Virus record (IMG/VR): IMGVR_UViG_3300031885_000015
Location: 1-60,447 of that record
DNA length: 60,447 bases
Reading direction: 5' to 3' (one strand)
Source of the DNA: a virus
Lineage: Duplodnaviria > Caudoviricetes
Positions 1 through 34,160 of this stretch are shown here, in pieces (the stretch's first letter is position 1; the number at the start of each line of letters is the position of its first letter). The notes below the pieces were generated by a model. It ran no database searches. It was given only the letters and a program-made list of their open reading frames with translations, and was not told where the DNA came from. The position numbers were made by a program, and so were the translations under genes.

Positions 1-127
1 GAGCCTCTCCAGTGTTCACAGTAGTTATCTGGACTACCGCACCAGCAGCCAAACCTTCACTCCCAGCAGGCTTGTCTGGAGGTAGCCCCCAGCTTAGTCT
101 CTCGAGTCTCGTGGCAGTCTCTAGCAT
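1..127. repeat. 127-bp terminal direct repeat, left copy (circular assembly overlap)
   Basis: 1-127 is identical to 60321-60447; the length equals a common assembler k-mer and the repeat lies inside a gene. Confidence 0.95.
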
Positions 128-775
128 CTCTAGTGCTACCTTAGCTGGTAGCCGGTCTGCATGTAGCTTGAGGTACTCAACCGCTTGAGTAAACAGCTGT
201 GAGCCAGCTGATGCATGTCGACCTTCCATCTTACGTACTTCGTATGCTCTGAGATGCTCTCGCTCTAGGTCCCTGAATGCATCGTAGGCCTTAGCTCGGA
301 TACGCCAATGATGAAGCTTCATAAGTATCTCAACCACTTGATGCTGCACACTGACCAGTTCAGTTATGCGAGCTATCGATCGGTGACCCTTCGTGTACTT
401 CATTTCTCGATATATCTTAAAGAGGTCGTAGTGAGGAATCAGCTCGCCGTCTAGACGCTCCCATAGTGGGAGGCCACCCACGTTGGCATAGCCATCCACG
501 TAGCTGATCGACACAACAACTTCATCAGGTGGGATAAGAGCTGCTGGCACTGTGGTTGAGTGTTCGTGTGAGGCGACGAAGACAAGAGTCCGGTCGGCGT
601 CGATATATGCTAGAGGTAGGCCTTCTGGGGTCTGGGCTAGCTGGGCCTGGTATGCAACTACTCGCTCCCCCATTGCTCGCATTGCTCTCATCTTCCCTTG
701 GTCCCAGGCCAAGGGATCATCATGCTCTACTTGCAGAGGATCTTCATGTGCTACTAGAGTTGCTTGCTCAAGCAT
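1..775 (-). CDS. terS: Terminase small subunit-like protein, 5' part (continues across the join to 60151; ~314 aa)
   Basis: Manual translation is open from ATG 775 (AGGTGG RBS) across the join; LWERLDGE..YDLFKIYREM..RSIARI..HWRIRAKAYD; directly upstream of TerL. Confidence 0.7.
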   Translation of the reverse strand, partial: MLEQATLVAHEDPLQVEHDDPLAWDQGKMRAMRAMGERVVAYQAQLAQTPEGLPLAYIDADRTLVFVASHEHSTTVPAALIPPDEVVVSISYVDGYANVGGLPLWERLDGELIPHYDLFKIYREMKYTKGHRSIARITELVSVQHQVVEILMKLHHWRIRAKAYDAFRDLEREHLRAYEVRKMEGRHASAGSQLFTQAVEYLKLHADRLPAKVALEMLETATRLERLSWGLPPDKPAGSEGLAAGAVVQITTVNTGEA

Positions 776-832
776 TGTTGCCACCACCTAGACTGCAGTT
801 TGACGGCTCAGTTTCTATAGCTCTCCAATATA

Positions 833-862
833 AGTATACCATAAAGATCCCGGGTTCGTCAA
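833..862 (-). promoter_or_regulatory. sigmaA-like promoter for the packaging/structural operon
   Basis: TTGACG-18-TATACT upstream of terS. Confidence 0.55.
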
Positions 863-918
863 CGGTTCTCGTCTAGATTTTCTTTTCTGTGCATGTTTGG
901 ATGGATAACTACTGCGTC

Positions 919-1005
919 TTCCCGTGATCTAAAATCCTGGTGTGATTTTTTTGACCCCATAGTCTAGATTCCGGTGATCTGAAATCCTGGTGTGATTTTT
1001 TGACC
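919..1005. repeat. Two ~37-bp direct repeats at 50-bp spacing
   Basis: TTCC(C/G)GTGATCT(A/G)AAATCCTGGTGTGATTTTTT(T)GACC at 919 and 969. Confidence 0.85.
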
Positions 1006-1052
1006 GCACGACGTAGAATAACAACAATTTTTTACAAACCACCACGCTTTAT

Positions 1053-1087
1053 AAAAAAAGTAGGAAGGATTTTATCCTTCCTACTTT
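1053..1087 (-). terminator. Intrinsic terminator of the 1097-1381 gene
   Basis: AAAGTAGGAAGGAT/ATCCTTCCTACTTT stem followed by a U-run on the minus strand. Confidence 0.8.
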
Positions 1088-1096
1088 ACCAACTAT

Positions 1097-1381
1097 TTAC
1101 TTCTTACTCTTTCTATATCTTTCCACCACCCCCCACACATAACTATAATTACTATTCAACTCATGACTAATCTCACCCACCGTTTTACCTACATCCCACA
1201 TTCTCCTAATCACACTACCCTTACTTTCAACCCCTTCCTTTTTTACAAATCCCTCACACTTACTTACAACACCATACACGAAACTATAATTCACCCCCAA
1301 TTCCTTACTTATCTCACTCACACTCTTACCACCAACATACAACCTCCTAAACTCCTCACTCTTACCACCTTTTCTTCTCAC
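1097..1381 (-). CDS. Tandem two-HTH DNA-binding protein (paralog 1), nearly C-free mRNA
   Basis: AAAAGGAGG RBS, own promoter and terminator; two KS..(F/I)RR(L/M)...GK.V.EIS.EL..NYS(F/Y)V.GVV repeats. Confidence 0.85.
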   Translation of the reverse strand: MRRKGGKSEEFRRLYVGGKSVSEISKELGVNYSFVYGVVSKCEGFVKKEGVESKGSVIRRMWDVGKTVGEISHELNSNYSYVWGVVERYRKSKK

Positions 1382-1413
1382 CTAACCTCAACCTCCTTTT
1401 AACCTTCAACCTA

Positions 1414-1447
1414 ATTATATTGTATCATAGAATCAATCCAAACACAA
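1414..1447 (-). promoter_or_regulatory. Promoter of the C-free gene
   Basis: TATAATTAGGTTGAAGG matches the phage -10 extension; alternatively TTGTGT-17-TACAAT with an extended TG. Confidence 0.55.
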
Positions 1448-1503
1448 CCCCAAACCAAATACTCGAAATATTCAAATTATTCCCTAAACTAACACCAACA
1501 TTT

Positions 1504-1679
1504 CAACACTTAACTAACCATCTAACTTACCCTAACTACTACAAACCCAAACATCTCAATACTTAACTAACGATAGAACTATAACTACTTCCCTTCTCGA
1601 ACGGCTTTGAAGCTCTTCAACACTTAACTAACAATAGAACTAATCACCAACAGTTAAACACTTAACTAACAATAGAACA
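1504..1679. repeat. Four copies of ACTTAACTAAC(AATAGAAC)
   Basis: Copies near 1504, 1557, 1618 and 1657. Confidence 0.8.
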
Positions 1680-1681
1680 AC

Positions 1682-1749
1682 AAAGTCAGAACATTCCGAA
1701 AGTCAGAACATTTCGAAAAGTCAGAACATTCCGAAAGTCAGAATATTCC
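1682..1749. repeat. Four tandem 17-bp iteron-like repeats
   Basis: AAAGTCAGAACATTCCG x4 with single substitutions. Confidence 0.9.
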
Positions 1750-1753
1750 AAAA

Positions 1754-2096
1754 GAAGCACCTACCCACCAATTAAAACTACACCCTGCCAGCTCCCTCCA
1801 CCCTAGAAGCACCTACACACCAATTAAAACTAGCCCTCCTCACAACACCTGCGCACCAATTAAAACTAGCCCCCACAAGCACCTGCCCACCGATTAAAAC
1901 TAGTCCCCACAACTACCTGCACACCAATTAAAACTAGTCTCCCGTAGCATGTTGGTGACTGACCTGGCGCAAAGAGTTTCGTCACGGGGCTCCTGGTCAC
2001 CAGTTTGAACTGGTCACCAGTTTGTCTACGCCAACGCCCCACCTGTACACCGGTTAAAACTCCTCTCCGACGCAACCGCACACCGGTTAAAACTCC
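1754..2096. repeat. Array of CACC(A/G)(A/G)TTAAAACT motifs, partly at 33-bp period
   Basis: Seven copies in 1754-2096; further copies near 2790 and 2902, and a partial one near 3697. Confidence 0.85.
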
Positions 2097-2147
2097 CCAC
2101 CGCAGCAGCCTTGGTTTCTGTCGCGAAAGTTGCATGTATGGAAACCG

Positions 2148-2176
2148 TTGACTTTTGCCCAGAAGTATAGTATAAT
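2148..2176 (+). promoter_or_regulatory. sigmaA-like early promoter
   Basis: TTGACT-17-TATAAT. Confidence 0.85.
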
Positions 2177-2216
2177 TAAGGTAGAAGTACAAAATAGATG
2201 AAAGGAGGTGAACAGA

Positions 2217-2516
2217 ATGGCCACCATGACGGAAGCAGCTGCAAAGAGAGTTGTTCTTGGTTGTACTAGCTGCAAGGAGTGCATAGACGACCAGAACAGA
2301 GATTGCAGCACGTGTCCAGAACAGAACAAGGAGACCAACTGCAAGTGGTGTGTGAAGCACAACGACACCAACTGCAGCAGTTGTCTTTGTGTCACCTGCT
2401 GTAATTGTTGTGACGAGCTAGCATGTAGCATCCGAGCCACAGGTCCTCCTTGTGGGCTGGTGCTACGTGAAACCCAACTAGCTACAGCACTTCTAGCTAC
2501 ACTCAACAAGAACTAA
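2217..2516 (+). CDS. Cysteine-rich small protein (16 Cys, 99 aa)
   Basis: AGGAGGTG RBS; repeated CxxC motifs. Confidence 0.75.
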   Translation: MATMTEAAAKRVVLGCTSCKECIDDQNRDCSTCPEQNKETNCKWCVKHNDTNCSSCLCVTCCNCCDELACSIRATGPPCGLVLRETQLATALLATLNKN

Positions 2517-2559
2517 CTTCACAGACCCTAAGTGCACCTGTAGGAAGGAGGAGTTGTCG

Positions 2560-2667
2560 GTGTCGACCACCAACGGGATTCGAGTTGCAATTTGCCTCAT
2601 ATGTGCACCAGTGGTCGTGACCATCCTGTACACGGCTGCACTTGCCATACAGTATCTCGCGCGTTAA
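2560..2667 (+). CDS. 35-aa hydrophobic peptide, copy 1
   Basis: AAGGAGGAG RBS; MSTTNGIRVAICLICAPVVVTILYTAALAIQYLAR; duplicated at 5758. Confidence 0.7.
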   Translation: MSTTNGIRVAICLICAPVVVTILYTAALAIQYLAR

Positions 2668-2933
2668 CTAGTAACTTCATAAACTCGAGCAGACCTGCAA
2701 CTACAGAACGCCAGGTTGTAGGAAACACTCGGGTTGCAGTTTGGGCCCCTGGTCACCAGATGCCCCCGACACATACCAACCCACCCACCCACCAGTTAAA
2801 ACTCCTGCCCGACATTTTGTTCGACCCAATCAGTCTGTTGACCAGGAGCCTTGCCCCGTCCTGCTCACCAGATGCCCCCGGCGCGTACCAACCCACCCAC
2901 CCACCAGTTAAAACTAGTGACTGGCACTAACAT

Positions 2934-2966
2934 AAAAAGAGGAAGGCTAGGATGACCTAGCCTTCC
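2934..2966 (-). terminator. Intrinsic terminator
   Basis: GGAAGGCTAGG-ATGA-CCTAGCCTTCC stem with a U-run on the minus strand. Confidence 0.75.
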
Positions 2967-2994
2967 CCTTCGACCTCTTGGGCTGCTATTAGCT

Positions 2995-3486
2995 CTAAGC
3001 TACAACCTTGGTCTGGACTGTAGCTGTCCGATCACGACGGTGCTTACTGATGACAGTATGCACGTAGGAGTAGTTGCTGTTGGTCGCGTGAGCGATCTGG
3101 CCGATCGTCATGTCACCCTCATCCCACAGCCGACGGAACAGATCAGCCTTCTCACCCTTGATACGACTGGTGATTGGCTGACCCTTGTCCTTCGCATGCC
3201 TCGTTACGACGGAGCGCACGAAGGAGTAGTTGCTGCCAGTGGCACGAGCGATCGTCGGAATGTCCTTGCCCTCGTCGTAGAGCCTGCGGAACATGTCGCT
3301 CTTCGTCTCCTTAGACTCTTCGACCACCTGAGGCTGCTCGACCTTCGGCTCGTCGGTCGCCTGTACACTGTCGGTCACCTGCACGTTGTCGGTCACTGGA
3401 CGCACGTCGTCAGCCACCGGACGCACCTCCTGCTTGTCGGTCGTTCCACCCACCTGAGACCTCTTCGACTTACCGTTGCTAGCCAT
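2995..3486 (-). CDS. Tandem two-HTH protein (paralog 2)
   Basis: AAAGGAGG RBS before ATG 3486; KSDMFRRLYDEG..IARATGSNYSFV and KADLFRRLWDEG..IAHATNSNYSYV. Confidence 0.85.
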   Translation of the reverse strand: MASNGKSKRSQVGGTTDKQEVRPVADDVRPVTDNVQVTDSVQATDEPKVEQPQVVEESKETKSDMFRRLYDEGKDIPTIARATGSNYSFVRSVVTRHAKDKGQPITSRIKGEKADLFRRLWDEGDMTIGQIAHATNSNYSYVHTVISKHRRDRTATVQTKVVA

Positions 3487-3520
3487 CTGACTGAAACCTC
3501 CTTTCGATCCTTCTAACTTA

Positions 3521-3549
3521 ATTATACTATACTTGAGAGCAAAAGTCAA
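3521..3549 (-). promoter_or_regulatory. sigmaA-like early promoter
   Basis: TTGACT-17-TATAAT. Confidence 0.85.
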
Positions 3550-3799
3550 CATGGACATAGCTGCAACTTCAAGCTCTTATACGCAATGTAGACACTGCAC
3601 CCCGGAGCTCCAAACGGCCATCGCCCCAGTCCCACTCACCAGCCACTGCTGGTAAGCCATTCGCAGCGTCGACCAGGCCGAAACTACCACAGCCCTATTA
3701 AAACTGAGCCTCGCAGCAACCACTGCAGTAACCACCACAGCAGCTAGTGTCAAGCAACAACTTCAGAGAATGCCACGAAAGTCACATGTATGGAGACTG

Positions 3800-3828
3800 T
3801 TGACTTTGAGCTCAAAATAGAGTATAAT
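3800..3828 (+). promoter_or_regulatory. sigmaA-like early promoter
   Basis: TTGACT-17-TATAAT. Confidence 0.85.
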
Positions 3829-3865
3829 TAAGATAGAAGGTACGAGATGAAGGGAGGTGACACGA

Positions 3866-4396
3866 ATGAACTACCCCAAACAGCTCAGCCGAGATCAAGC
3901 TGACGAGATCGTCAATACTCGTCACAAGGATCTCGTAGCAGGCGTGGGCGAAGGCCCATCGCTCGATGGCGACTACGAACAGACTGAAGAGAGCCACGTG
4001 TACGGGCTCGATGACGGCACTGCTCTCGTTGTGCGACACAACAAGGTTAGCTACATCGAAGGTGGCGAAGCAACTAAGCTTCTCAACAAGTTCGACTCAC
4101 AGCTCCCAGGCTTGCACAACGACGACGTGTGGTACCTTGTTCTGAGCGGCCTCGTAGCCGAAGACCTCAAGGAGAAGGGTCTCCACAAGACTAGCGTTCA
4201 AGACCTCACCTCGAAGCTGTTTTTCAACCTGCAGCAGGCACACGAGTACATGGAGCAGTGGGCTGCAGCTAGACAGCGAGAGGAAGATGCGGTGCTGTTC
4301 GCTGACGACGAGCACGACTTGCTGATTGCCAAGAACCCTGAAACCAAGCTTGAGAGGTTCTGGTACCTCATCCCTATCCGAGTAGCCTGTCGATAG
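3866..4396 (+). CDS. Hypothetical early protein
   Basis: GGGAGGTG RBS; follows a promoter. Confidence 0.75.
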   Translation: MNYPKQLSRDQADEIVNTRHKDLVAGVGEGPSLDGDYEQTEESHVYGLDDGTALVVRHNKVSYIEGGEATKLLNKFDSQLPGLHNDDVWYLVLSGLVAEDLKEKGLHKTSVQDLTSKLFFNLQQAHEYMEQWAAARQREEDAVLFADDEHDLLIAKNPETKLERFWYLIPIRVACR

Positions 4397-4625
4397 CTAG
4401 GTAGCTAACAAGCAACCACTAACAGAGACCAAACGGGAGTGAGAGTACCGTCCGTAGCGCAAAGCGCTCTATACGGAAACCACTCGGGATGCGATGAAAC
4501 GTCCTGAGCGTCCGGCCCGCCCTCTGGCAAAAACGCCAGATAGGCGTTGCTCTCCCCCACCACATAAAACGAGGAAACCTCAGCTGACTCCAGAGCCAAC
4601 CCTAAAAGTCACTCCATTGAGACTC

Positions 4626-4654
4626 TTGTCTTTTTTACACTTATGTAGTATAAT
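4626..4654 (+). promoter_or_regulatory. sigmaA-like early promoter
   Basis: TTGTCT-17-TATAAT. Confidence 0.75.
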
Positions 4655-4683
4655 TAAAGTAGGATCAGAGTAGAGCAAAGGAG

Positions 4684-5085
4684 GTGGGAACATTGACCTA
4701 CAAGAACCTTCAGCGACGCGCGAGTGAGCTAGGGCTCTCGCCCTTTGGTAAGTCGCAGACGCAACTCGAGGCTGAGATCCAGCAGGCTGGCAGTGCTACT
4801 CCCACCAAGAGCAGCCAGATCAGAGCCCTACACGACAAGGGGTACTCAGTGTCTGAGATCGCTCAGATGCTGAACCTCAACTACAGCTTCGCCTACGGAG
4901 TGGTTCAAAAGCACTCTGGTGCCAGGAAAGAAGCCACTCCTAGGCCCCCCAGCAGAAGCCAGCAGATCCGAGAGCTAGCTGAGACCGGTGTAGCAAGGAA
5001 GGAGATATGCACTCGGCTCGGAGTCACCTACAGCCTCGTGTACAACGCCTTGAACAACCCTCCGAAGGGAGGTACCAAGGGGTGA
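4684..5085 (+). CDS. Tandem two-HTH protein (paralog 3) with a short N-terminal helical domain
   Basis: KSSQIRALHDKGYSVSEIAQMLNLNYSFAYGVV and RSQQIRELAETG..EICTRLGVTYSLVYNAL. Confidence 0.85.
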   Translation: MGTLTYKNLQRRASELGLSPFGKSQTQLEAEIQQAGSATPTKSSQIRALHDKGYSVSEIAQMLNLNYSFAYGVVQKHSGARKEATPRPPSRSQQIRELAETGVARKEICTRLGVTYSLVYNALNNPPKGGTKG

Positions 5086-5234
5086 CCTATCCACAGGCGT
5101 TCCTAGTTTGCTCGCTCGCGCTGCTCGTGCTGTCGATGACAGGTCTTGCCATCGAGGACTGGCTGAAGTGGCGAAAGTACCAACCGCAGAGGCTAAAAGC
5201 CTCAAGGAGGAGCAAGCGATGCCCCACCCCCTAG
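5082..5234 (+). CDS. Small membrane protein
   Basis: GGGAGG RBS, GTGA overlap with the upstream gene, hydrophobic N-terminus. Confidence 0.55.
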   Translation: MTYPQAFLVCSLALLVLSMTGLAIEDWLKWRKYQPQRLKASRRSKRCPTP

Positions 5235-5707
5235 AACGAGACAGTAGGGTTCCAAGCTTCAACTATCCAAAGTCCACTGAGGATTACATCAAGTGGTGCA
5301 AGGCCGCCATCCTCGATGGCGGTAACCTCGGTGGATGGGACCCAGAGAACCCGCTTGCCGCAGACACCAAGTACGGCTCGTCAGTCAATGTGTTCGACGG
5401 GGTGCTGACCACGGAGCTAGGACAGTGGGCAGTCCTCATCTACCTAGGGGGCGAAGTGACCCAGAGAGATGAGACAGGGATTCCCACCTCCTACTCAAGG
5501 CTAGTAGTCAGCATGTGGGGGCCTGACAAGCTCGCCTGCCTGATCAGGTACCCCTACCAGCGGCCGTCACAAGTGGAGCTTCGAACGTGTCATTACTGCT
5601 ACAAGGAAAACGTTCCGACCGTGCAGCTATCGTTCGCCGGCCGAGCCTGCGTCGGGTGTCGAAAGAAGCTTGTGGCAGAGTACGAGTATCCAGGCTGGAC
5701 GAAGTAA
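5219..5707 (+). CDS. Hypothetical protein with C-terminal Zn finger
   Basis: AAGGAGGAG RBS; CHYC..CVGC. Confidence 0.7.
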   Translation: MPHPLERDSRVPSFNYPKSTEDYIKWCKAAILDGGNLGGWDPENPLAADTKYGSSVNVFDGVLTTELGQWAVLIYLGGEVTQRDETGIPTSYSRLVVSMWGPDKLACLIRYPYQRPSQVELRTCHYCYKENVPTVQLSFAGRACVGCRKKLVAEYEYPGWTK

Positions 5708-5757
5708 GCGCTAGGTACCTAAGTACTAGGTACCCAAGTACCAAGGAGGGGTTGTCG

Positions 5758-5865
5758 GTGTCGACCACCAACGGGATTCGAGTTGCAATTTGCCTCATAT
5801 GTGCACCAGTGGTCGTGACCATCCTGTACACGGCTGCACTTGCCATACAGTACCTCGCGCGTTAG
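5758..5865 (+). CDS. 35-aa hydrophobic peptide, copy 2
   Basis: Same peptide as 2560-2667; differs only by TAT/TAC and TAA/TAG. Confidence 0.7.
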   Translation: MSTTNGIRVAICLICAPVVVTILYTAALAIQYLAR

Positions 5866-5916
5866 CGGTACAACGCCTCGAAGCATGAGGTACCTAAGTA
5901 CAAGGAGGGCATAACA

Positions 5917-6030
5917 GTGGGTGACATACTCTGCTCCTGGTGTCTGCGTAGCGTTGATTGCAGCTATGAGGGTTGCAGCTGCGACGGGTGTCCAGGCGAA
6001 CAGTATGACGAGCTCCTAGCTACAAGCTAG
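5917..6030 (+). CDS. 37-aa Cys-rich peptide
   Basis: AAGGAGGG RBS; MGDILCSWCLRSVDCSYEGCSCDGCPGEQYDELLATS. Confidence 0.5.
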   Translation: MGDILCSWCLRSVDCSYEGCSCDGCPGEQYDELLATS

Positions 6031-6254
6031 AGGCTACGAGCTACGAGCTAAAAGCCGCGGTGGCAAAACGAAACTCGGCGGCCGCAAAACGAGAGTGCCT
6101 CACTACAAGCGGAAGTGCCTAGGCAGCCTAGGGGCCTAGGCACGCCCTTTCATTTTCGCACATTTTCGCACTTATAATTTTCGACGAAATGGGGCATACT
6201 AAAAATAGCAGGGTAAGGCTCAGATAGGCCCTGACTATTAGAGGAGGTGTCCAC

Positions 6255-6554
6255 ATGCCCCTAAAGTTCGAGGGAACCCACTTCGGCAAGCAGCCACAAC
6301 CAGTCGACTCTCCATTGTATGGCAAGGGATACGTTCCACCCAGTCCACCGAAGGTAGATGGTCCCCAGATCGATCTGGACGTCCTACACAATAAGGAGGT
6401 ACTTGACGCTCTCAGAGAAGCAGGACGGATCTATTACGAAGAGATGGTTAAGGTGGGATATTCCCCACTCACCATCGGAACCTACCACTCTCAGGTAGGA
6501 CGCTTCATTCTGTTCCTAGAGCAAGGGCAGGTACTTCCAGATCGAGAACAGTAA
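6255..6554 (+). CDS. Hypothetical protein; C-terminus resembles an integrase SAM-like domain
   Basis: AGGAGGTG RBS; GYSPLTIGTYHSQVGRFILFL. Confidence 0.65.
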   Translation: MPLKFEGTHFGKQPQPVDSPLYGKGYVPPSPPKVDGPQIDLDVLHNKEVLDALREAGRIYYEEMVKVGYSPLTIGTYHSQVGRFILFLEQGQVLPDREQ

Positions 6555-6625
6555 CTGTTAGACAGCAACAGCTACTCAACAGCTGCTCAACAGCTGCTTA
6601 ACAGCTAGTAAGCTAGCCTACCAGA

Positions 6626-6670
6626 AGGGGAGCCTCTGTAGCTGCACTAAGTAAGCTACAGGGGCTCCTC
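6626..6670. terminator. Hairpin closing the rightward early unit
   Basis: GGGAGCCTCTGTAGCT/AGCTACAGGGGGCTCCT stem; no clear U-tract. Confidence 0.55.
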
Positions 6671-6732
6671 TCTACACCAAGCAAGCTACAACCATTGGCA
6701 TAGCAATAACTGAAGATGTTCACACCTTCGGT

Positions 6733-7060
6733 AGCTATCAAAACTATCGTAACTAAAAATCGAGGAGAATTCGATAGCCCGATTTTTCCGCGAAATTTCG
6801 CGGTTCCTCGCCCTCGGGCTATCGAAACTATCGGATTTAAGTCCTACTTATATATTCTACACTTAATTCCCTAACCGTTTTAGTTTACCAGTAAGCTTAA
6901 ATCCGATAGCTTTGATAGCCGACACCCGAGGAACCCACGTTTTTCGCGGGTTTTCTCGGGCTATCGGTTTCTCGTCGACCTATAGCCTTGCTACCAAAAT
7001 CCAATAGCCCTCACCCGAGGAACCCACGTTTTTCGCGGGTTTTCTCGGGCTATCGATTTC
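6733..7060. other. Putative replication origin
   Basis: 25-bp inverted repeat (6817-6841/6896-6920) flanking an AT-rich core; identical 44-bp direct repeats at 6923 and 7012; many GCTATC/GATAGC motifs; non-coding and near the primase. Confidence 0.6.
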
Positions 7061-7248
7061 TCTTCAACTTGTCACCCTACACTTTGGAAGGCTGCAGATA
7101 TGGGTAGCCCAGTAAATCTTACGGGACCACCTCACAGTGCTACTCCTACCAAGAGCAGGAGTTTCCTGGTTGGAAGGACCTTTCAGATCTACTGAGCCAC
7201 CAAACTGCGGAGTAAGCTGTAACCTACTTAGGAAGTCCTGTAGCTTAC

Positions 7249-7860
7249 CTAGGAGGTCCTGTAGGTCTTTCCGTTCGAGAGGGTATCGTGATTGCAGCGT
7301 TCCTCCAAGCATAGTTCTCGCATGCTGCAATCTACAGGGAAAGGACAAATGCCCCGTTGGACAGCCGTCCTAACTGTACCCTTCTCGATCTTGAGTAGGA
7401 GCTTACCGCGCTGTTTGACGAACCGTGCAGCCTCCGTAACAACCTGGCAGAAGTCGTCACCCTGGAAGGTGTACATGTAGAGATTGAGTGCAGCTTCATC
7501 CTGCTGAATGCAAGCGACAGGCTCGAGGCCAGGAGTCTGCGTGTGAGGACCCGACAAGCTTGGGCCAGGCAAGTTCGGGCTGCGGACGCAGAAGCGAAGG
7601 GTTAGCACGATCCTACTATCAGTCCAGTACACCTGAGAGTGGTTGATCCTACACCACTCAAGCGCACCACGAGGACTCAGCACTCCACCCTCTGGTACGT
7701 CGGAGGGTGCAAGACCTACTGTTCTTTTGATTGTACTCCGAATGATATCTCCCCATCCAGGTGCCACGTCCTTATGAAACGAGGCTCGGACGTCCTCCTG
7801 TTGGAACACAAGTACAGCCTCAGCCTCGAAGCACTTACGCAAGGCCGTCGTGATGTGCAC
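7249..7860 (-). CDS. Hypothetical protein
   Basis: AAGGGAGG RBS; 203-aa ORF. Confidence 0.55.
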   Translation of the reverse strand: MHITTALRKCFEAEAVLVFQQEDVRASFHKDVAPGWGDIIRSTIKRTVGLAPSDVPEGGVLSPRGALEWCRINHSQVYWTDSRIVLTLRFCVRSPNLPGPSLSGPHTQTPGLEPVACIQQDEAALNLYMYTFQGDDFCQVVTEAARFVKQRGKLLLKIEKGTVRTAVQRGICPFPVDCSMRELCLEERCNHDTLSNGKTYRTS

Positions 7861-7922
7861 TTCGTCTAACCTCCCTTGATAGCCAAGCTGTTAGAGCTAG
7901 TTGTTAGAGCTAGCTTTAACAG

Positions 7923-8105
7923 CTAGCCAAGTTGTTGAAGACACTCGTCGCTACACACTGGTACCAGGTAGTCAATATCGCGCCACCAGGTAAGCTGCTC
8001 GCAGACCTGACAAGGCAGCTTCTCGATAACCAAGATCACAGATGACTGGGGCTCCTCCCAGAGCTTAGTGTCTGGGTATCTGTCATCGAACTTCATCGTA
8101 ATCAC
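7923..8105 (-). CDS. Small Zn-finger protein
   Basis: CQVC..CSDEC. Confidence 0.55.
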   Translation of the reverse strand: MITMKFDDRYPDTKLWEEPQSSVILVIEKLPCQVCEQLTWWRDIDYLVPVCSDECLQQLG

Positions 8106-16906: not shown

Positions 16907-17131
16907 GTGATTCTCGTTAGAGTAGGTAAGAGAAACTACTTCGCTCGTGACGAGAGCTGCAAGCAGCGTAGATGTTGGGCTCCTGGTGAATATCAACATC
17001 GTGGAGCCACCGGGGCTAGTGGTTCACGAAATACTGGTGCAGTTAGCAGGGTGTGCCTGACTCACATCTATCAGGGCTGCCCAAAGCTAGACGTTGCCAG
17101 TGTGGTGGAAGGGCAGACACAGCGGACTTAA
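16907..17131 (+). CDS. Hypothetical protein whose 3' end overlaps the tRNA
   Basis: AAAGGAGGAGG RBS. Confidence 0.5.
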   Translation: MILVRVGKRNYFARDESCKQRRCWAPGEYQHRGATGASGSRNTGAVSRVCLTHIYQGCPKLDVASVVEGQTQRT

Positions 17132-17176
17132 AATCCGCCGCCGTAAGGCATCTGGGTTCAAATCCCAGCACTGGCA
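17096..17176 (+). tRNA. tRNA-Leu(UAA), no encoded CCA
   Basis: GCCAGTG/CACTGGC acceptor stem, GCGGA-CTTAAAA-TCCGC anticodon arm, long variable arm, GGTTCAAATCC T-arm. Confidence 0.92.
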
Positions 17177-17261
17177 TTAACGTTTCAGGAACAGCGTGTT
17201 TTGTGGTTGCCTCTCTGGTACTTCAGTGTGGACTTCAGACATTTAAGGAGGAAGTTGTGGC

Positions 17262-19789: not shown

Positions 19790-20488
19790 GTGTTATCTAA
19801 GGTGATTCCTCTTCCAAGCATGCCAGAACCGGGGGTACGCCTCTCTGTCGGTGCCAGTGAAATCGCCGAAACGTTGGCAGATACCCTGTTTCAATGTCTT
19901 AAGTGTTTTCCTCCCAGTAAGAGGCGGCAGGTTGCATTCTTGTGCATCGGTGCTGGCCGATCGATAGGAGATATACTAGGACCAACGGTAGGTTCACTGC
20001 TAGTTGACGCTGGGTGGAGAGTAGGCTGCGTACCAGGTGGAGCATTTAAGCGATGTGGCGTATCGCGGGTATCTGTGTATGGTACTCTAGAGCGCCCCGC
20101 ACATGCTGGAGGCATTCCCCTATCAGGAGGGTCTCGTCGGACAACTATCATTGCCATAGGTGCGTGTCCAGGGTCACTTGAGGATATAGGCTCGATTGAT
20201 ATTAGACTCGGCCCCATCCAACCTTGTATTGGCCTCGCCACACACGTGGATTCCTTCAGGGATCTCTTACCAGTAGGCGACGTGTCTGTGGCTGGAGCGA
20301 TCGGTGTGGGGAGCATAGATCAACTCCTTGGAGCTACAGCTACTCAGGTAGGGCCACGAGTGGTACTTAGGCTCGATGAGCTCAGCGTCCAACTTAGCGT
20401 AGTTATGAGTATAGCAGCTGCCATCAGCCGTGGAGTACTTGTAGCTTTGGGGGCACATCCAAGGAATCTGCACGGAGGGAGGAAATGA
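19790..20488 (+). CDS. yyaC: YyaC (DUF1256) spore protease-like protein, divergent
   Basis: FLCIG..RSIGDILGPTVG, VYGTLERPAHA, IIAIGAC, GPIQP, LPVGD. Confidence 0.75.
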   Translation: MLSKVIPLPSMPEPGVRLSVGASEIAETLADTLFQCLKCFPPSKRRQVAFLCIGAGRSIGDILGPTVGSLLVDAGWRVGCVPGGAFKRCGVSRVSVYGTLERPAHAGGIPLSGGSRRTTIIAIGACPGSLEDIGSIDIRLGPIQPCIGLATHVDSFRDLLPVGDVSVAGAIGVGSIDQLLGATATQVGPRVVLRLDELSVQLSVVMSIAAAISRGVLVALGAHPRNLHGGRK

Positions 20489-29825: not shown

Positions 29826-30227
29826 TTGGGACCAGCAGATGGTGCTTGGGACATCGTTCAGCTAGGCTGTACCCTCACCTTCGATGCTGCTCACTACCTG
29901 CCTCGCCATGAGGGCAAGTGCAAGAGGCTACATGGGCACACCTACCAGGTGGAGGCTGTTGTGCAAGGGCACGTAGATCCCAATACTGGGATGGTAGTAG
30001 ATTTCAGCATTCTGGAGGGAGCTCTCCTTAGAGTCACCGAAAAGCTGGATCACAACTGTCTGAACGAGGTGCTGAGTTTTACTCCCACAGCGGAGAACAT
30101 TGCTGCATGGATATTTCTCCAGCTACAGGCAGAGCTAGGTTCAGCAGGTACTGGGGGACAGGAGCTAGCTCTCGTGTCTGTGACGGTACACGAAACCCCG
30201 ACCTCCTTTGCAAAGGTAGGTGCCTAG
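29826..30227 (+). CDS. queD: 6-carboxy-tetrahydropterin synthase
   Basis: FDAAH, CKRLHGHTY, GMVVDF, LDH, PTAENIA, ETP. Confidence 0.95.
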   Translation: MGPADGAWDIVQLGCTLTFDAAHYLPRHEGKCKRLHGHTYQVEAVVQGHVDPNTGMVVDFSILEGALLRVTEKLDHNCLNEVLSFTPTAENIAAWIFLQLQAELGSAGTGGQELALVSVTVHETPTSFAKVGA

Positions 30228-30999
30228 GATGTTGGAAGGCCCCTCAGGGAGTAGCTGCGTAAAAGATAAGAGGTACCCAATCAATGAGATCTTTGGGCCA
30301 ACTATCCAGGGAGAAGGACCGCTTCTCGGAACTCCCAGCGTATTTCTTCGTACCCAGGGCTGCGATAACAGCTGTGTGTGGTGTGATACACCTTACGCAC
30401 TGAAGGGTCCCTGCCGGCACATGACTGCTATGGAGATCCTGACAGAGCTCCAGCTCAAGGCAGAGGGATGCAAGTGGGTGACTATCACGGGAGGAAACCC
30501 ACTAATCCATGACCTCTTTGAGCTAATTAGACCACTCCATGGACTAGGTTTCCTCGTAGGCGTGGAGACTCAAGGTACAGTGTTCAGGGAGTGGGTTAGA
30601 GACTGCGACAGCATAGTTCTGTCTCCTAAGCCTCCTAGCTCAGGAAACGCTACTGATTCCTTTGTCGTGCAAAGGTTCGTCTCGCAGCTTCATCGGACAG
30701 GGTTATCTATCAAGCCTTGGTCCCTCAAGGTCGTGGTGTTCGACGACATCGACTACGCGTATGCCAAGCAACTCCACTCTCTCTTTCCCTTCAATCTACT
30801 GCATCTCCAGGTAGGGAACAATATACCTCTAGATGCAGTCATGGACTACCCTGCCTACATAAGCCGTTTACGGTGGCTTGCAGAGAAGGTTCTGGCTGAT
30901 CATCAGAAAGACGGTTTCTTCTGGCACGACGTAGATCAGGGTGTGAAGGTGCTACCTCAGCTGCACCTGCTCCTATACGGCCCTAAGAGAGGTGTATAG
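30220..30999 (+). CDS. queE: 7-carboxy-7-deazaguanine synthase (radical SAM)
   Basis: EIFGPTIQGEG, CDNSCVWCDT, TGGNP, SPKPPSSG, LPQLH. Confidence 0.95.
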   Translation: MPRMLEGPSGSSCVKDKRYPINEIFGPTIQGEGPLLGTPSVFLRTQGCDNSCVWCDTPYALKGPCRHMTAMEILTELQLKAEGCKWVTITGGNPLIHDLFELIRPLHGLGFLVGVETQGTVFREWVRDCDSIVLSPKPPSSGNATDSFVVQRFVSQLHRTGLSIKPWSLKVVVFDDIDYAYAKQLHSLFPFNLLHLQVGNNIPLDAVMDYPAYISRLRWLAEKVLADHQKDGFFWHDVDQGVKVLPQLHLLLYGPKRGV

Positions 31000-31001
31000 C
31001 A

Positions 31002-31850
31002 GTGGCTCTTCTCGTAGAAGTGATGGGCCCGCCTGTGAGGGTAGAAGACTTGCCGGATGTTCAGAACATCGCTGGGGACTTTAAATTCCCTGTAAAGGCG
31101 GGTATTTCAGGGGTAGTGATGCCTATCCTGGTAAAGACGCAGCAAGGTACCCTTTTCAGCACGGTTGCTAAGGTAGACATGCACGTTCTGCTACCTAGCA
31201 GACTCCGGGGAGTAAACATGAGTAGGCTACCCATCATATTGAGTGAGATGAACCAGAATAGCTGGGTGGTCGATAACCTACGGGACACTCTGAGGAAGAT
31301 GCTGATAAGACTTGAGTCTACTACTGCACGGATGCAGCTTCGATTTCCCTACTTTTATAATAAGCAATCTCCGTGCAGTCCAAACGTAGGAGTAGCTCAT
31401 GCAGACATCATCTTCGACGCTAGTCTTGTAGATACTCAGCCAGAGAGCTACTGCTTTATACTCACAGTAAAGGTACCGGTTATCACGCTGTGCCCTTGCT
31501 CCAAGGAAATTAGCTCTAACTCGGCTCATAATCAGCGAGCTGTAGTGACCATAACGGTAGCCTACGACGAATTTGTCTGGATTGAGGAGCTCATTCGCTA
31601 CGCTGAGGTGAGTAGCAGTGCAGCACCCTTTCCTGTCCTTAAGAGATGGGACGAGAAACGAGTAACGGAGGACGCCTACAAGAACCCTAAGTTCACGGAG
31701 GACGTCGCTCGAGGAGTCGCGTCTCTGCTGACAGCAGATACGAGGATTGCTGGCTTTCACGTAACAGTACGGAGCCAGGAAAGTATCCATCAGTACGACG
31801 CTGTTGCGGAGGTGAGTGGTGGCCTCCGGAACCTATGGACGCGTAGCTAG
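31002..31850 (+). CDS. folE2: GTP cyclohydrolase IB
   Basis: LPDVQ, RGVNMSR, TLCPCSKEIS..AHNQR, LKR.DEK, ESIH. Confidence 0.95.
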   Translation: MALLVEVMGPPVRVEDLPDVQNIAGDFKFPVKAGISGVVMPILVKTQQGTLFSTVAKVDMHVLLPSRLRGVNMSRLPIILSEMNQNSWVVDNLRDTLRKMLIRLESTTARMQLRFPYFYNKQSPCSPNVGVAHADIIFDASLVDTQPESYCFILTVKVPVITLCPCSKEISSNSAHNQRAVVTITVAYDEFVWIEELIRYAEVSSSAAPFPVLKRWDEKRVTEDAYKNPKFTEDVARGVASLLTADTRIAGFHVTVRSQESIHQYDAVAEVSGGLRNLWTRS

Positions 31851-31900
31851 TTAGCTTGGGAGAAGAGGGTGGGGTAGGTCACCCCAAGGAGGAGCTGGAC

Positions 31901-32332
31901 ATGAGGTGCCTCGTAGTTAGGACTCAGCTTGAGGGTGTTCACTGCTACATAGGTGCGCCCCCTGAGGTAGACTATCTTAGCCTTCCTCATCGACACGTGT
32001 TTCACATCGAAGTTGAGATCGAGGTATTCAAGGAGAACCGCGAACTGGAGCTCCTCTCAATAAAGGCAGATCTGACGCAGCACCTACGAGCTATCTTAGG
32101 TGGCCGATACCTACTTCCTAACGATCGGTCGAGCCATGCTCGAGTAAGATGTAAGTCGTGCTTGAGTAAGATGTTTTGCCTATCCCAAGATATTCACTCA
32201 AATAGCTGTGAGCACTTTGCCACCGCTATTCAGAGCTACCTTAAGATACGCTACCCATCTGAGCCTCCTCGCAGAGTAAGCGTGAGAGTGCTTGAGGATG
32301 GAGAAAACGGCTGTTACTTAAGAGAGGTGTAA
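31901..32332 (+). CDS. dpdL: QueD-like T-fold protein, DpdL-like (putative CDG decarboxylase)
   Basis: LSLPHRHVF (LxxxHRHxF), SCE and EDGENG motifs; sits within the que cluster. Confidence 0.7.
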   Translation: MRCLVVRTQLEGVHCYIGAPPEVDYLSLPHRHVFHIEVEIEVFKENRELELLSIKADLTQHLRAILGGRYLLPNDRSSHARVRCKSCLSKMFCLSQDIHSNSCEHFATAIQSYLKIRYPSEPPRRVSVRVLEDGENGCYLREV

Positions 32333-32335
32333 CCG

Positions 32336-32761
32336 ATGCCAGATGAACGTCACCAAAGCGAGCTAGGTTCAGGGACCTCCCAAGTTCTGAGTAGCCATTT
32401 ATCTCCCTATGCTGCTGATGTGTTGGCATTTGATCTGGAGCATGGACTACTATCAATCCATGAGCCGACGATTGAGAACATTAGCTACCTCCTCACTGCG
32501 ATGACAGGAGAGGTAGGGGAGCTAGCAAACGTCGTGAAGAAGATCTGGCGCGATGGAGAGAGCCCGAAGCTCTGGCGACAGTTTGATGAGGAGCTTGTCG
32601 ATATCCTGATCTACTACATTGAACTACTCGTAGCAGCTAGAGTGGACATAGACAAGGCATGGAGAGTCAAGGAGCAAGTCCTAAAGGAGCGGTGGCTGCA
32701 GCGAGGACCCTACAAGATTACCAGTCGGGGCTTGCAAACCTCGAGGGGGGAACTTCCATGA
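32336..32761 (+). CDS. MazG-like NTP pyrophosphohydrolase
   Basis: GEVGELANVVKK..EELVDIL. Confidence 0.85.
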   Translation: MPDERHQSELGSGTSQVLSSHLSPYAADVLAFDLEHGLLSIHEPTIENISYLLTAMTGEVGELANVVKKIWRDGESPKLWRQFDEELVDILIYYIELLVAARVDIDKAWRVKEQVLKERWLQRGPYKITSRGLQTSRGELP

Positions 32762-33351
32762 TCGTGATTGTAGCAGGACCAGATCGAAGTGGCAAGACTA
32801 CCCTCATGCATATCCTAGGAGAGATATTTGGAGTTACTCCTCGTAAAGCTTGTCGCATCGCAGACGATGGAGAGACGATAGCTGCTGTGGCCACCTACCT
32901 TCGAGAAGAGACAGAGCTTTACAAGCCTCTTTATAGTGGCCTGCGTAAGCCTCTGCAGCCCCCTACCCTCTGGGACCGCTGGTGGTATCCTGACGACGTT
33001 ATATACCGAGCGGTGGCGGAGGGCAGAGAATCGATCCTGCTCCCGTACGCGCAGGTAATTGAGCAGCAGCTTAAGAGACTCCAAACTGTTTTTCTCCACG
33101 TGACAGCTAGCCAAGAAACGCTGGAGGCAAGGTATAAGCAGCTAGGGGAAGACGACTACCTTCCTAAGAGCAAGCTACCAGCGCTACTTGAGGCCTACGA
33201 GAGATTCTTCCTGGACACTAAGCTTCCTGCATATCGCATCTGCACCGATGATTCTATCTCCTCGAAGCTCACTACGGTGACACGCGCATGCCGTTACGTA
33301 CGGCAGGCTACGCTGCAGTTCTTGTCGGAGGAAGGAGTGGCCACTGAATGA
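32758..33351 (+). CDS. dNMP kinase (thymidylate kinase-like P-loop)
   Basis: IVAGPDRSGKTT, WDRW..DDVIY, LEARY. Confidence 0.82.
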   Translation: MIVIVAGPDRSGKTTLMHILGEIFGVTPRKACRIADDGETIAAVATYLREETELYKPLYSGLRKPLQPPTLWDRWWYPDDVIYRAVAEGRESILLPYAQVIEQQLKRLQTVFLHVTASQETLEARYKQLGEDDYLPKSKLPALLEAYERFFLDTKLPAYRICTDDSISSKLTTVTRACRYVRQATLQFLSEEGVATE

Positions 33352-34160
33352 AAATCGCTACGATCGTGCCGACTGCATACCTCTCTCTGACCAAGGAAGA
33401 CACGTACTTTATGGCCCTGGCTCACTTGGTGGGGAAGGACCAAGCATACACGGATTTCTTTAGGCGTCAGAGTGAAGCAGGAAAGTACGTGATCATGGAC
33501 AACGGGGCTGCTGAGGGGCAGCAGCAACCAATCGAGGTTCTACTAGAGCGAGCAGCCTTGATCAAGGCTACGGAGCTTATCCTGCCAGATGTGCTCCTAA
33601 ATTGCAGGGAGACCTTGAGGCTAGGGTACTCTGCGCTAGAGGAGATAGACAAGTGTGGTGTCCGAATCGCCCTAATGGCTGTTCCACAAGGAGAGTCCTT
33701 CAGCGAGTGGATTAGGTGTGCCCGAGGGATGACAAGCTGGCCCGTTCAAGTCATCGGCATATCGAAGTTTCTCACTAAGCAGCTAGGTTCAGGCGCCCGG
33801 CTACAAGCCTTGACGATGCTAGAGACTTGCTACGAGGAAAAGGATGTTCACCTACTTGGCTGCCACCAGGATCCTCGAGAAGTGCATACCATATCAGTGT
33901 TCTACCCTTCAGGTGGCCACGTCAACAAACTAAGGGTTCGAGGAGTTGACAGTGCTATCGCATATGCGTATGCAAGGGTAAACCAGCCACTAAGGCCTGC
34001 ACACCTCCGTCCCGAGATGGAGATAGATTTCTCAGACACCAAGACCGATTCCAAATACCTCAAGTGGCAGATCCGAGCTTGGAAGTACTACTGTCGGCAT
34101 GGAGAGGAGCCCCCTCAAGTACCGCTTGCCGTCTTTCCTCCCTTCTCTATTTTTAAGTAA
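33348..34160 (+). CDS. dpdA: TGT/DpdA-superfamily transglycosylase, DpdA3-like
   Basis: LAHL..Y..FF..GKYVIMDNG..E, LPDV, AVPQG, HLLGC, RGVDS. Confidence 0.7.
   Translation: MKIATIVPTAYLSLTKEDTYFMALAHLVGKDQAYTDFFRRQSEAGKYVIMDNGAAEGQQQPIEVLLERAALIKATELILPDVLLNCRETLRLGYSALEEIDKCGVRIALMAVPQGESFSEWIRCARGMTSWPVQVIGISKFLTKQLGSGARLQALTMLETCYEEKDVHLLGCHQDPREVHTISVFYPSGGHVNKLRVRGVDSAIAYAYARVNQPLRPAHLRPEMEIDFSDTKTDSKYLKWQIRAWKYYCRHGEEPPQVPLAVFPPFSIFK

Follow-up and report, generated by a model that had tools for sequence, protein, structure and literature searches.

What would lead a bacteriophage to write an entire transcription unit almost without cytosine? The question is raised by a short segment of IMG/VR virus record IMGVR_UViG_3300031885_000015 (Duplodnaviria; Caudoviricetes), a complete record of 60,447 nt that was analysed at its full length and is here called the window. 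Next to a small terminase-like gene (terS), the minus strand of the window encodes a 94-aa protein with two helix-turn-helix (HTH) units, and the sense strand of this gene, together with its leader and the terminator's first arm, is nearly purged of C, as its template strand is of G. A preliminary description of the locus had ascribed this to selection, not drift. We confirm that the observation is real and not a sequencing oddity, and our results support nucleotide-level selection acting on the whole transcription unit; we show that the purge overrides codon preference and amino-acid choice and follows the direction of transcription.

A transcription unit nearly free of cytosine

The features of the unit, with one ordinary paralogue of its gene, are as follows.

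1069 to 1421, minus strand: core cytosine-free segment (sense strand minus), 3 C in 353 nt, from the base count and a maximal-segment scan
1097 to 1381, minus strand: bipartite HTH gene of 94 aa with a GTG start, from open reading frame (ORF) calling, Pfam, an AF2 model and a codon test
1392 to 1398, minus strand: ribosome-binding site (RBS) AAGGAGG, 10 nt before the GTG, read off the sequence
1057 to 1087, minus strand: intrinsic terminator, a 14-bp hairpin (14 of 14 positions complementary) with a T-run, from repeat and signal scans
1414 to 1447, minus strand: candidate promoter found by eye, with an extended -10 TG-n-TACAAT at 1427-1419 (or TATAAT at 1419-1414) and a weak C-free -35
1422 to 1571, minus strand: C-poor non-coding leader or upstream DNA, holding two of the four copies of a 21-25-nt repeat
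1572 to 1950, minus strand: transition zone with repeat arrays and 10% C, from composition and repeat finding
2995 to 3558, minus strand: paralogue of ordinary composition, 45% identical to the C-free gene, with a TTGACT promoter and its own terminator

On the plus strand the core segment is made up of 99 A, 131 C, 3 G and 120 T, the three G's lying at 1165, 1182 and 1280 exactly as first described, in a window whose plus strand is 26.3% G. Sliding windows of 353 nt hold on average 92.9 G (sd 16.1), the lowest count outside the region being 60, at 6664. Ranked by length, the top four G-free runs of the genome measure 141, 106, 97 and 96 nt, and every one falls within 1069-1571; the longest one elsewhere reaches 35 nt. 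The independent maximal-segment scan returned the same 1069-1421 as the best low-C segment of the minus strand. That the scarcity runs past 1421 also holds: there are 6 G in the 503 nt of 1069-1571, the non-coding minus strand of 1382-1571 being 1.6% C and 41% T, and only in 1572-1950 does the minus strand reach about 10% C. At its other border the C-free zone stops in the terminator loop, with the first arm of the hairpin C-free and the second holding the C's needed for pairing. The idea of a recoded gene stands as to the recoding and is too narrow as to the feature, which takes in leader DNA in the window and as many as five genes in a relative. As to signals, the RBS and terminator first described are present, but a consensus scan made no sigma-70-type promoter call for this gene on the minus strand, leaving the candidate seen by eye; the three ordinary promoters nearby found by consensus scan are all TTGACT-17-TATAAT.

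Codon usage expected from 20 reference genes of the same genome gives the recoding its measure. Among the 66 codons of the HTH gene that have both C-containing and C-free synonyms, a single one contains C (TTC at 1280), where 32.1 were expected (log10 P about -22.6). Its other two C's belong to a His codon (CAT, 1165) and a Thr codon (ACG, 1182). All three Leu codons are TTG, and the Ser of both EIS motifs is AGT, in agreement with what had been read off the sequence. The purge extends to the residues themselves: those that require C (Ala, Pro, Gln, His and Thr, hereafter APQHT) make up 2 of the 94 residues vs. 26.5% in the reference genes, with no Ala, Pro or Gln and one Thr and one His, as already reported. 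An open frame of 94 codons would arise by chance in such a base composition with P about 5e-5. Across the coding part the lost C is replaced by G (+10 points), A (+7) and T (+5). Folded in silico, the mRNA of the module is nearly structureless, at -0.047 kcal/mol per nt vs. -0.314 +/- 0.041 for 60 random windows, as befits a message whose sense strand lacks C.

The encoded double HTH is intact, as had been claimed, with matches to Pfam HTH_28 (29.2 bits, cut-off 25) and HTH_23 (26.8 bits, cut-off 24.6). An AF2 model (mean pLDDT 85.6) has two three-helix units, with helices at residues 7-16, 21-28 and 32-39, and at 54-63, 68-75 and 79-93. In a structure search the best matches were bipartite HTH domains, and weak (Foldseek E 4.6e-3, TM 0.35; none at E <= 0.001). 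Two three-helix units joined by a linker are likewise the plan of the N-termini of Tc3 and IstA transposases, of the Pax paired domain and of Cbp1; unlike the transposases, the module protein has no catalytic domain. Its paralogue at 2995-3558 has 27% C in the HTH part and 26-28% APQHT.

Variation and authenticity of the segment

An assembly or sequencing artefact had been named among the outcomes that would refute the first reading. The region recurs in two other JGI contigs at 99.75% (L015) and 99.4% (L016) identity and in a 93% variant (L017), and sediment runs of 7 studies, one run each, contained at least half of the sampled sequence words; 4 of the 7 runs may be sources. Comparison with L017 gives 50 differences in 513 columns of the block, as against 9 in 335 nt of the adjoining flank, and homology between the two breaks at about 1581. 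Seven of the 50 involve C, and six of those seven are T/C. Each lineage has 8-9 C's, of which five are shared, three are private to the window and four to L017, so that C's come and go yet stay near 1.6%. The synonymous C of TTC at 1280 is kept in both.

Conservation of the C-free state among relatives

The block lies at the same place beside terS in syntenic phages of about 60 kb, its conserved position in this siphophage family being between terS and the early-gene control region. An alignment search with terS gave 29 IMG/VR loci, in which we sought windows with at most six of one base per 200 nt. Four loci had such windows, all near terS: G001, L047, L048 and one partial case at a contig edge. 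L047 has 6 C in 721 nt, and in L048, an AT-rich island, 1 C remains in the 292 nt of the best low-C segment. In a further metagenome contig (L019), a stretch of 662 nt covering two small ORFs contains 1 C, and both adjoining HTH genes are ordinary.

The most extreme case is G001, a syntenic genome of 62 kb and 41% GC whose proteins are 30-59% identical to those of the window, with 1 C in 2305 nt beside terS. That sole C belongs to a His codon, in a conserved HYSF-type motif of its HTH gene. The block holds five small ORFs, four of them strongly acidic and with none of their 56-85 residues needing C, and is 45% non-coding; the small acidic genes of relatives each have a C-free promoter of their own. 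Promoters within the G001 block read TTGAT[AT]-17-TATAAT, and the first promoter outside it TTGACT-17-TATAAT. By eye the block contains five near-identical promoter-leader-RBS cassettes, the leader carrying a run of G5-7 and TATATAG repeats. Its C-free zone begins directly past a terminator-like hairpin, and copies of one imperfect palindrome flank the block on both sides (L021 2134-2170 and 4458-4680). The other block ORFs of G001 and L019 had no significant Pfam or PHROG family, one weak DnaG_cat_HB match lying below its cut-off.

The arrangement of these blocks bears on the kind of cause to be sought. Upstream of terS in the window, L047 and L048, the block has the terS strand as its C-free strand; in G001 the block is beside terS but inverted, and the C-free strand is the opposite one. 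The enclosed genes always have the C-free strand as their sense strand, and since it thus tracks gene direction, a cause in replication or packaging polarity is unlikely and one linked to transcription likely. Block gene content varies, from the HTH gene alone, to the HTH gene with four acidic ORFs, to two other ORFs beside ordinary HTH genes, which fits a rule on the transcription unit better than one on a single protein. The state recurs in genomes of 36-53% GC, and the G content of the blocks ranges over 10-37%, so that the constant is the absence of C on the sense strand, not G-richness. A G-quadruplex or R-loop sensor as the general cause was dropped, with G so variable and G-quadruplex motifs in 1 of 6 blocks.

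At this position the orthologues grade from ordinary in G008 (15.4% C; 22 APQHT in 135 residues) through intermediate in G007 (6.7% C; 3 in 118) to L047, L048, the window and G001. A wider census of the HTH family took the best 150 of 1220 representatives (clusters at 50% identity), among which median APQHT was 20.8%, eleven had at most 3%, four of these with none in 117-158 residues, and one lay at 3-5%. This bimodal distribution is what a distinct regime would be expected to give, rather than compositional drift. G-rich as well as AT-rich types are found among the low-APQHT members, so that the rule is not tied to one GC content. In the family tree these members are scattered, requiring 6 changes (4 of 500 shuffles were as low), and the well-supported branches could be reconciled with a single origin; we do not claim independent origins from the tree, and rest the claim on the orthologue series and the census. 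Apart from this, the family includes some very long proteins of 465-1557 aa, in which the double-HTH module is matched by 3 to 12 stretches (P0090, P0119, P0141, P0145, P0146, P0155 and P0178).

The verdict of selection, not drift, is supported by the single C-containing codon in 66 where 32.1 were expected, the C-free amino-acid alphabet, the lone His C of G001, the bimodal family and the recurrence in orthologues.

Two candidates for a phage-encoded partner of the block were tried and set aside. The only tRNA of the window is a tRNA-Leu(UAA) (17095-17177, plus strand), which reads UUA and UUG, the sole C-free Leu codons and 14% of Leu codons in the reference genes; G001, G006 and G008 have no credible tRNA and G007 only an odd four-base-anticodon call, and the agreement with the all-TTG Leu codons of the C-free gene may be coincidence. 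A block-specific phage agent such as a C-specific RNase did not appear either: a tblastn comparison of every window ORF of 60 aa or more with G001, G006, G007 and G008 gave no phage gene specific to the block-bearing genomes. The latter result points to an agent that is host-side or condition-dependent, which fits the patchy distribution.

Why cytosine is excluded

Our preferred reading, at a probability of roughly 0.38, is that the C-less transcript itself brings the benefit, which is the class of the earlier option of a message immune to CTP shortage, ddhCTP or C-requiring RNases. The module would consist of the bipartite HTH gene, its RBS, its leader and the first terminator arm, with sense strand purged of C and template of G by selection on every nucleotide of the unit. 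The advantage would lie in the transcript and in its making: an RNA of A, G and U only could be synthesized by host RNA polymerase without CTP, could not suffer chain termination by a CTP analogue, would offer no C for Rho loading or to C-requiring endoribonucleases, and would have almost no secondary structure. The module might then be expressed in host states, or under host defences, where ordinary C-containing phage messages fail, and its product, a putative DNA-binding regulator, would act on the surrounding repeat arrays. A benefit at the level of the transcript fits the unit-wide extent of the purge and its halt at the terminator, and likewise the varying gene content and a distribution that is patchy and host-like.

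Several points weigh against it. In the window, L047 and G001, the C-free stretch reaches 150-340 nt beyond the best promoter candidates on their upstream side, and a cause at the RNA level fits only if transcription covers these leaders. Total absence of C is more than evasion of Rho or of motif-specific RNases calls for, and host RNA polymerase is less sensitive to ddhCTP than phage polymerases are. Three RNA runs contained 6% of the sampled words and gave 4 short contigs, whose uncovered parts carry no meaning. One of these (run X10; 292 nt, adapter at both ends, nominal depth 219) covers 1403-1581 and 1645-1673, the non-coding upstream part of the block, in a variant of about 94% identity lacking one 63-nt repeat unit, and may represent either a discrete RNA or a single fragment that was duplicated. 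As a group the RNA-library contigs look like duplicated single fragments, possibly DNA carry-over, and are no demonstration of transcription. The only matches in genome contigs were two metagenome-assembled genomes, from which no host was inferred. Finally, a lack of C in the RNA, of G in the template and of C in the non-template strand share one sequence signature.

A bolder proposal, which we regard as doubtful though worth stating, is that of a bootstrap operon, in which the genes needed first (a regulator and, in relatives, small acidic proteins) would be written in three letters. They would then be the only readable part of a genome whose guanine is fully replaced, or would yield the only message able to be made and to persist, where a C- or G-directed host defence or a shortage of nucleotides stops all other expression. 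Whatever probability the readings set out here leave over belongs to causes that we have not thought of.

Among the alternatives to a benefit in the transcript, the one that survives best, although we judge it unlikely, moves the pressure to the template: on G-free DNA the polymerase would never meet a modified G, an intermediate of DpdA3 exchange or damage directed against modified G, and the unit might report the state of modification. It draws on the following feature of the window.

29826 to 34160, plus strand: 7-deazaguanine cluster of the phiST type, comprising QueD, QueE, FolE2, an unnamed ORF, a MazG-like and a kinase-like ORF (both weak matches) and a DpdA3 homologue

Gene order in the cluster is that of phiST. 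QueD scored 104.3 bits (cut-off 89.25), QueE 222.9 (cut-off 206.1) and FolE2 240; the DpdA3 homologue (33348-34160) is 34.7% identical over 141 aa to phiST CGPG_00065 (E 1e-13), the first 52% of the query being aligned. The phiST subtype is marked by a missing QueC together with a DpdL decarboxylase; no QueC was found among the 10 ORFs of the cluster region by NCBIfam scan; the ORF at 32659-33351 had no Pfam family at E <= 1e-5 and that at 31856-32332 matched an unnamed PHROG only. PMC10516641 names CGPG_00065 as DpdA3 and reports complete replacement of guanine in three DpdA3 phages (phiST, CP220 and immuto_2-6A). By analogy, the phage of the window is predicted to carry a dDG- or dCDG-type replacement of guanine, which is possibly complete. 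Homologues of QueE and DpdA3 occur in all five genomes compared (window, G001, G006, G007 and G008), an association that is confounded by common descent.

A lesion or adduct in the template would have a strong effect per nucleotide, fitting the near-absolute exclusion, and the promoters within the blocks have -35 boxes without C, whose template partner G is contacted by sigma according to PMC4838386. The same source nevertheless describes 7-deazaguanine templates as transcribed very efficiently by the RNA polymerases of Escherichia coli and Bacillus subtilis, and bulkier 7-substituents as inhibiting initiation, not elongation, with no shorter transcripts. G008 has the cluster and no C-free block, and phiST (whole genome), Youna2 (50,000 of 52,903 nt) and BSP7 (50,000 of 55,455 nt) have DpdA3 homologues and no window with fewer than 10 C or G per 200 nt. 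The replication genes, which are needed from the incoming genome, have ordinary composition. Of the modified-G option first proposed, the DpdA3 cluster is thus present, while its biochemical support is lost and the three cultured DpdA3 phages scanned, like G008, have no block. As a separate observation, phiST has a genome-wide strand skew (12.6% G and 17.6% C on the record strand, with most genes on its complement) and has an RNA polymerase gene of its own.

Somewhat less probable again is deamination, as something avoided or as a footprint: the non-template strand, exposed as a single strand by very strong transcription, R-loops or entry at a leading end, would have had its C's erased by spontaneous or enzymatic deamination, and C-free alleles would be stable. 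Such an effect is strand-specific and follows transcription, as here, and the comparison with L017 is much as it would predict, with a block evolving faster than its flank, T/C making up 6 of 7 differences that involve C, and turnover of C's, though five are shared. The non-coding parts are T-rich (41%), and surviving C's are found where C-to-T would hurt (His and Thr). In the coding part, however, C has given way mainly to G and A and not to T, and Ser, Leu and Arg codons, now AGT, TTG and AGR, have undergone multi-step shifts and not C-to-T changes. Animal mitochondrial DNA is the classic case of deamination asymmetry, and the C content of 0.04-1.6% lies below the skews of its neutral sites. 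An APOBEC-like footprint would deplete C in a favoured dinucleotide context and spare the others; here all contexts are depleted, and the six C's that remain show no pattern, with T or A before them and A, G or T after. One of them is the synonymous C at 1280, retained in both lineages. A single unit is affected, although promoters of equal strength precede other phage genes. Strand-specific mutation at a genome end, also proposed earlier, is disfavoured by this replacement of C mostly by G and A and by the flipping of the strand relative to terS in G001. IMG/VR classes the record as having direct terminal repeats, but we read its ends as an assembly overlap and not as mapped physical or virion ends, because position 1 sits within an ORF running off the record.

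We think it improbable that the block is a cis-acting DNA element (an origin or R-loop primer, a packaging or entry end, or a leader free of restriction sites) that merely happens to hold a gene. It does adjoin terS and dense iteron-like repeat arrays unique in the genome, and RNase H, a family A polymerase and a PrimPol-helicase are among the products of the phage. The lack of C also reaches past the candidate promoters into the DNA upstream of them, and where every G is on the same strand, palindromic sites with G:C pairs cannot occur. Against such an element, the strand is inverted relative to terS in G001 yet matches gene direction, the propensity to form R-loops or G-quadruplexes is not conserved, the borders coincide with terminator hairpins, and weak selection per site, such as restriction-site avoidance, would not yield 1 C in 2305 nt.

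An artefact, or neutral import from a donor of skewed composition, is the least credible explanation: the data are a metagenome assembly and the block is mosaic, with L017 homology breaking at about 1581, but near-identical contigs (L015 and L016), the 93% variant, the words in 7 sediment runs, an intact frame homologous to ordinary paralogues and recurrence across 36-53% GC all speak against it.

The control region and the phage

The module borders a region dense in repeats, and the following features lie beyond its terminator.

833 to 1001, minus strand: two 33-nt direct repeats (919-951 and 969-1001) with a promoter-like site (862-833) before terS, from repeat and promoter scans
2 to 787, minus strand: small terminase-like gene (terS; phrog_6299, E 1.7e-8)

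Three or four families of direct repeats occur only in the terS and early control region (1488-2100, 2790-2916 and 919-1001). The 21-25-nt repeat (D4/D5) has two of its four copies in 1422-1571, and D4 copies lie at 1616-1678; a 17-18-nt repeat is present four or five times at 1665-1768, and a repeat of about 34 nt at 1749-1940. A 15-nt repeat core occurs 10 times where 0.85 copies were expected, always on the plus strand, 9 of the copies lying within 1766-2916. These arrays are likely operator or iteron sites for the four HTH paralogues, those at 919-1001 and 1488-2100 being the candidate binding sites of the C-free gene's product, and the 33-nt repeats before terS are possibly the target of an activator.

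The double HTH protein, encoded between terS and repeat arrays confined to that region, most simply suggests a regulator of its own control region. Its position directly upstream of the promoter-like site with two direct repeats suggests a late activator, and its divergent arrangement with the early operon a switch protein. RinA/ArpU-like late-gene activators are likewise placed upstream of terS; no such family was among the Pfam or PHROG matches, and no dedicated homology test was made. Rfam gave the tRNA as its sole match at gathering score and nothing credible in 700-2300. On the other side of the control region, the first ORF after the early TTGACT promoter (2208-2516, plus strand) encodes a very cysteine-rich protein of 102 aa with no Pfam or PHROG family.

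In the window as a whole, the structural and packaging block is on the minus strand, running from terS to homologues of large terminase, portal, capsid and tape-measure proteins. The plus strand carries a replication and nucleotide block with PrimPol-helicase, ligase, SNF2 helicase, PD-(D/E)XK nuclease, AAA_24, RNase H, a family A polymerase with a UDG domain and ribonucleotide reductase; the polymerase gene (34202-36637, plus strand) has its UDG-superfamily domain at the N-terminus. No phage RNA polymerase was seen among the window ORFs scanned. The nearest cultured relatives by capsid are Roseobacter RDJL phages and Arthrobacter and Pseudomonas siphophages, all less than 47% identical, and neither megablast of window positions 1-8000 nor tblastn of the 94-aa HTH protein found a match among GenBank phages. 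A DUF1256 (YyaC/spore-protease-like) gene at 19790-20488 (plus strand) hints at a spore-forming host.

Relation to known systems

Full-text literature gave no description of a natural base-free phage transcription unit or operon, matches to "C-less" being laboratory templates, and the abstract of a method paper (PMC6526412) holds long stretches without one nucleotide to be rare in natural DNA and RNA.

Its closest counterparts differ from it in instructive ways. G-less and C-less cassettes are laboratory templates for in vitro transcription. Like the module, C-less cassettes specify an RNA without one nucleotide, made without that NTP, with the polymerase halting where it is needed; for the module the halt position in CTP-free transcription would be the second terminator arm. 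Unlike them the module is natural, protein-coding and evolutionarily conserved, with its proteins rebuilt from 15 amino acids. ACA-less genes, the basis of the single-protein-production system, are messages without the MazF site, and restriction sites are avoided in phage genomes. Such cases share with the module an avoidance at the sequence level that keeps coding while removing the target of a nucleic-acid-directed enzyme, which for the module would be a putative one, but they drop a motif of 3-7 nt and the module excludes a whole nucleotide, coding and non-coding alike; every C-containing motif is necessarily missing from the C-free blocks. Single-strand deamination, which shapes animal mitochondrial DNA and leaves APOBEC footprints in viruses, also depletes one strand of C in a directional manner; the block is far more extreme, spans 0.35-2.3 kb with sharp borders, follows no sequence context and has its amino-acid usage rebuilt.

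The pre-early or early regions of T5 and T7 serve host takeover. The G001 block resembles them in its tandem strong host-type promoters and small acidic proteins beside an ordinary early operon; those regions are not nucleotide-exclusive. The phiST DpdA3 system, described in PMC10516641, shares its gene order with the cluster of the window and explains the base modification, not the C-free block.

What the finding means for these phages is that something acts at single cytosines in RNA, or at single G or C in one DNA strand, and outweighs the optimisation of the protein. The identity of the agent would reveal either a new constraint on guanine-modified genomes or a new axis of conflict between phage and host, for which CTP supply, chain terminators, Rho, C-specific RNases and DNA deaminases are candidates. 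For the study of transcription, the blocks are natural C-less cassettes. Base-free windows on a single strand are trivial to scan for and could flag early or anti-defence modules in metagenomic phages. Were the bootstrap proposal true, the blocks would embody an undescribed, sequence-encoded principle of counter-defence and would be a marker for immediate-early anti-defence genes in uncultured phages.

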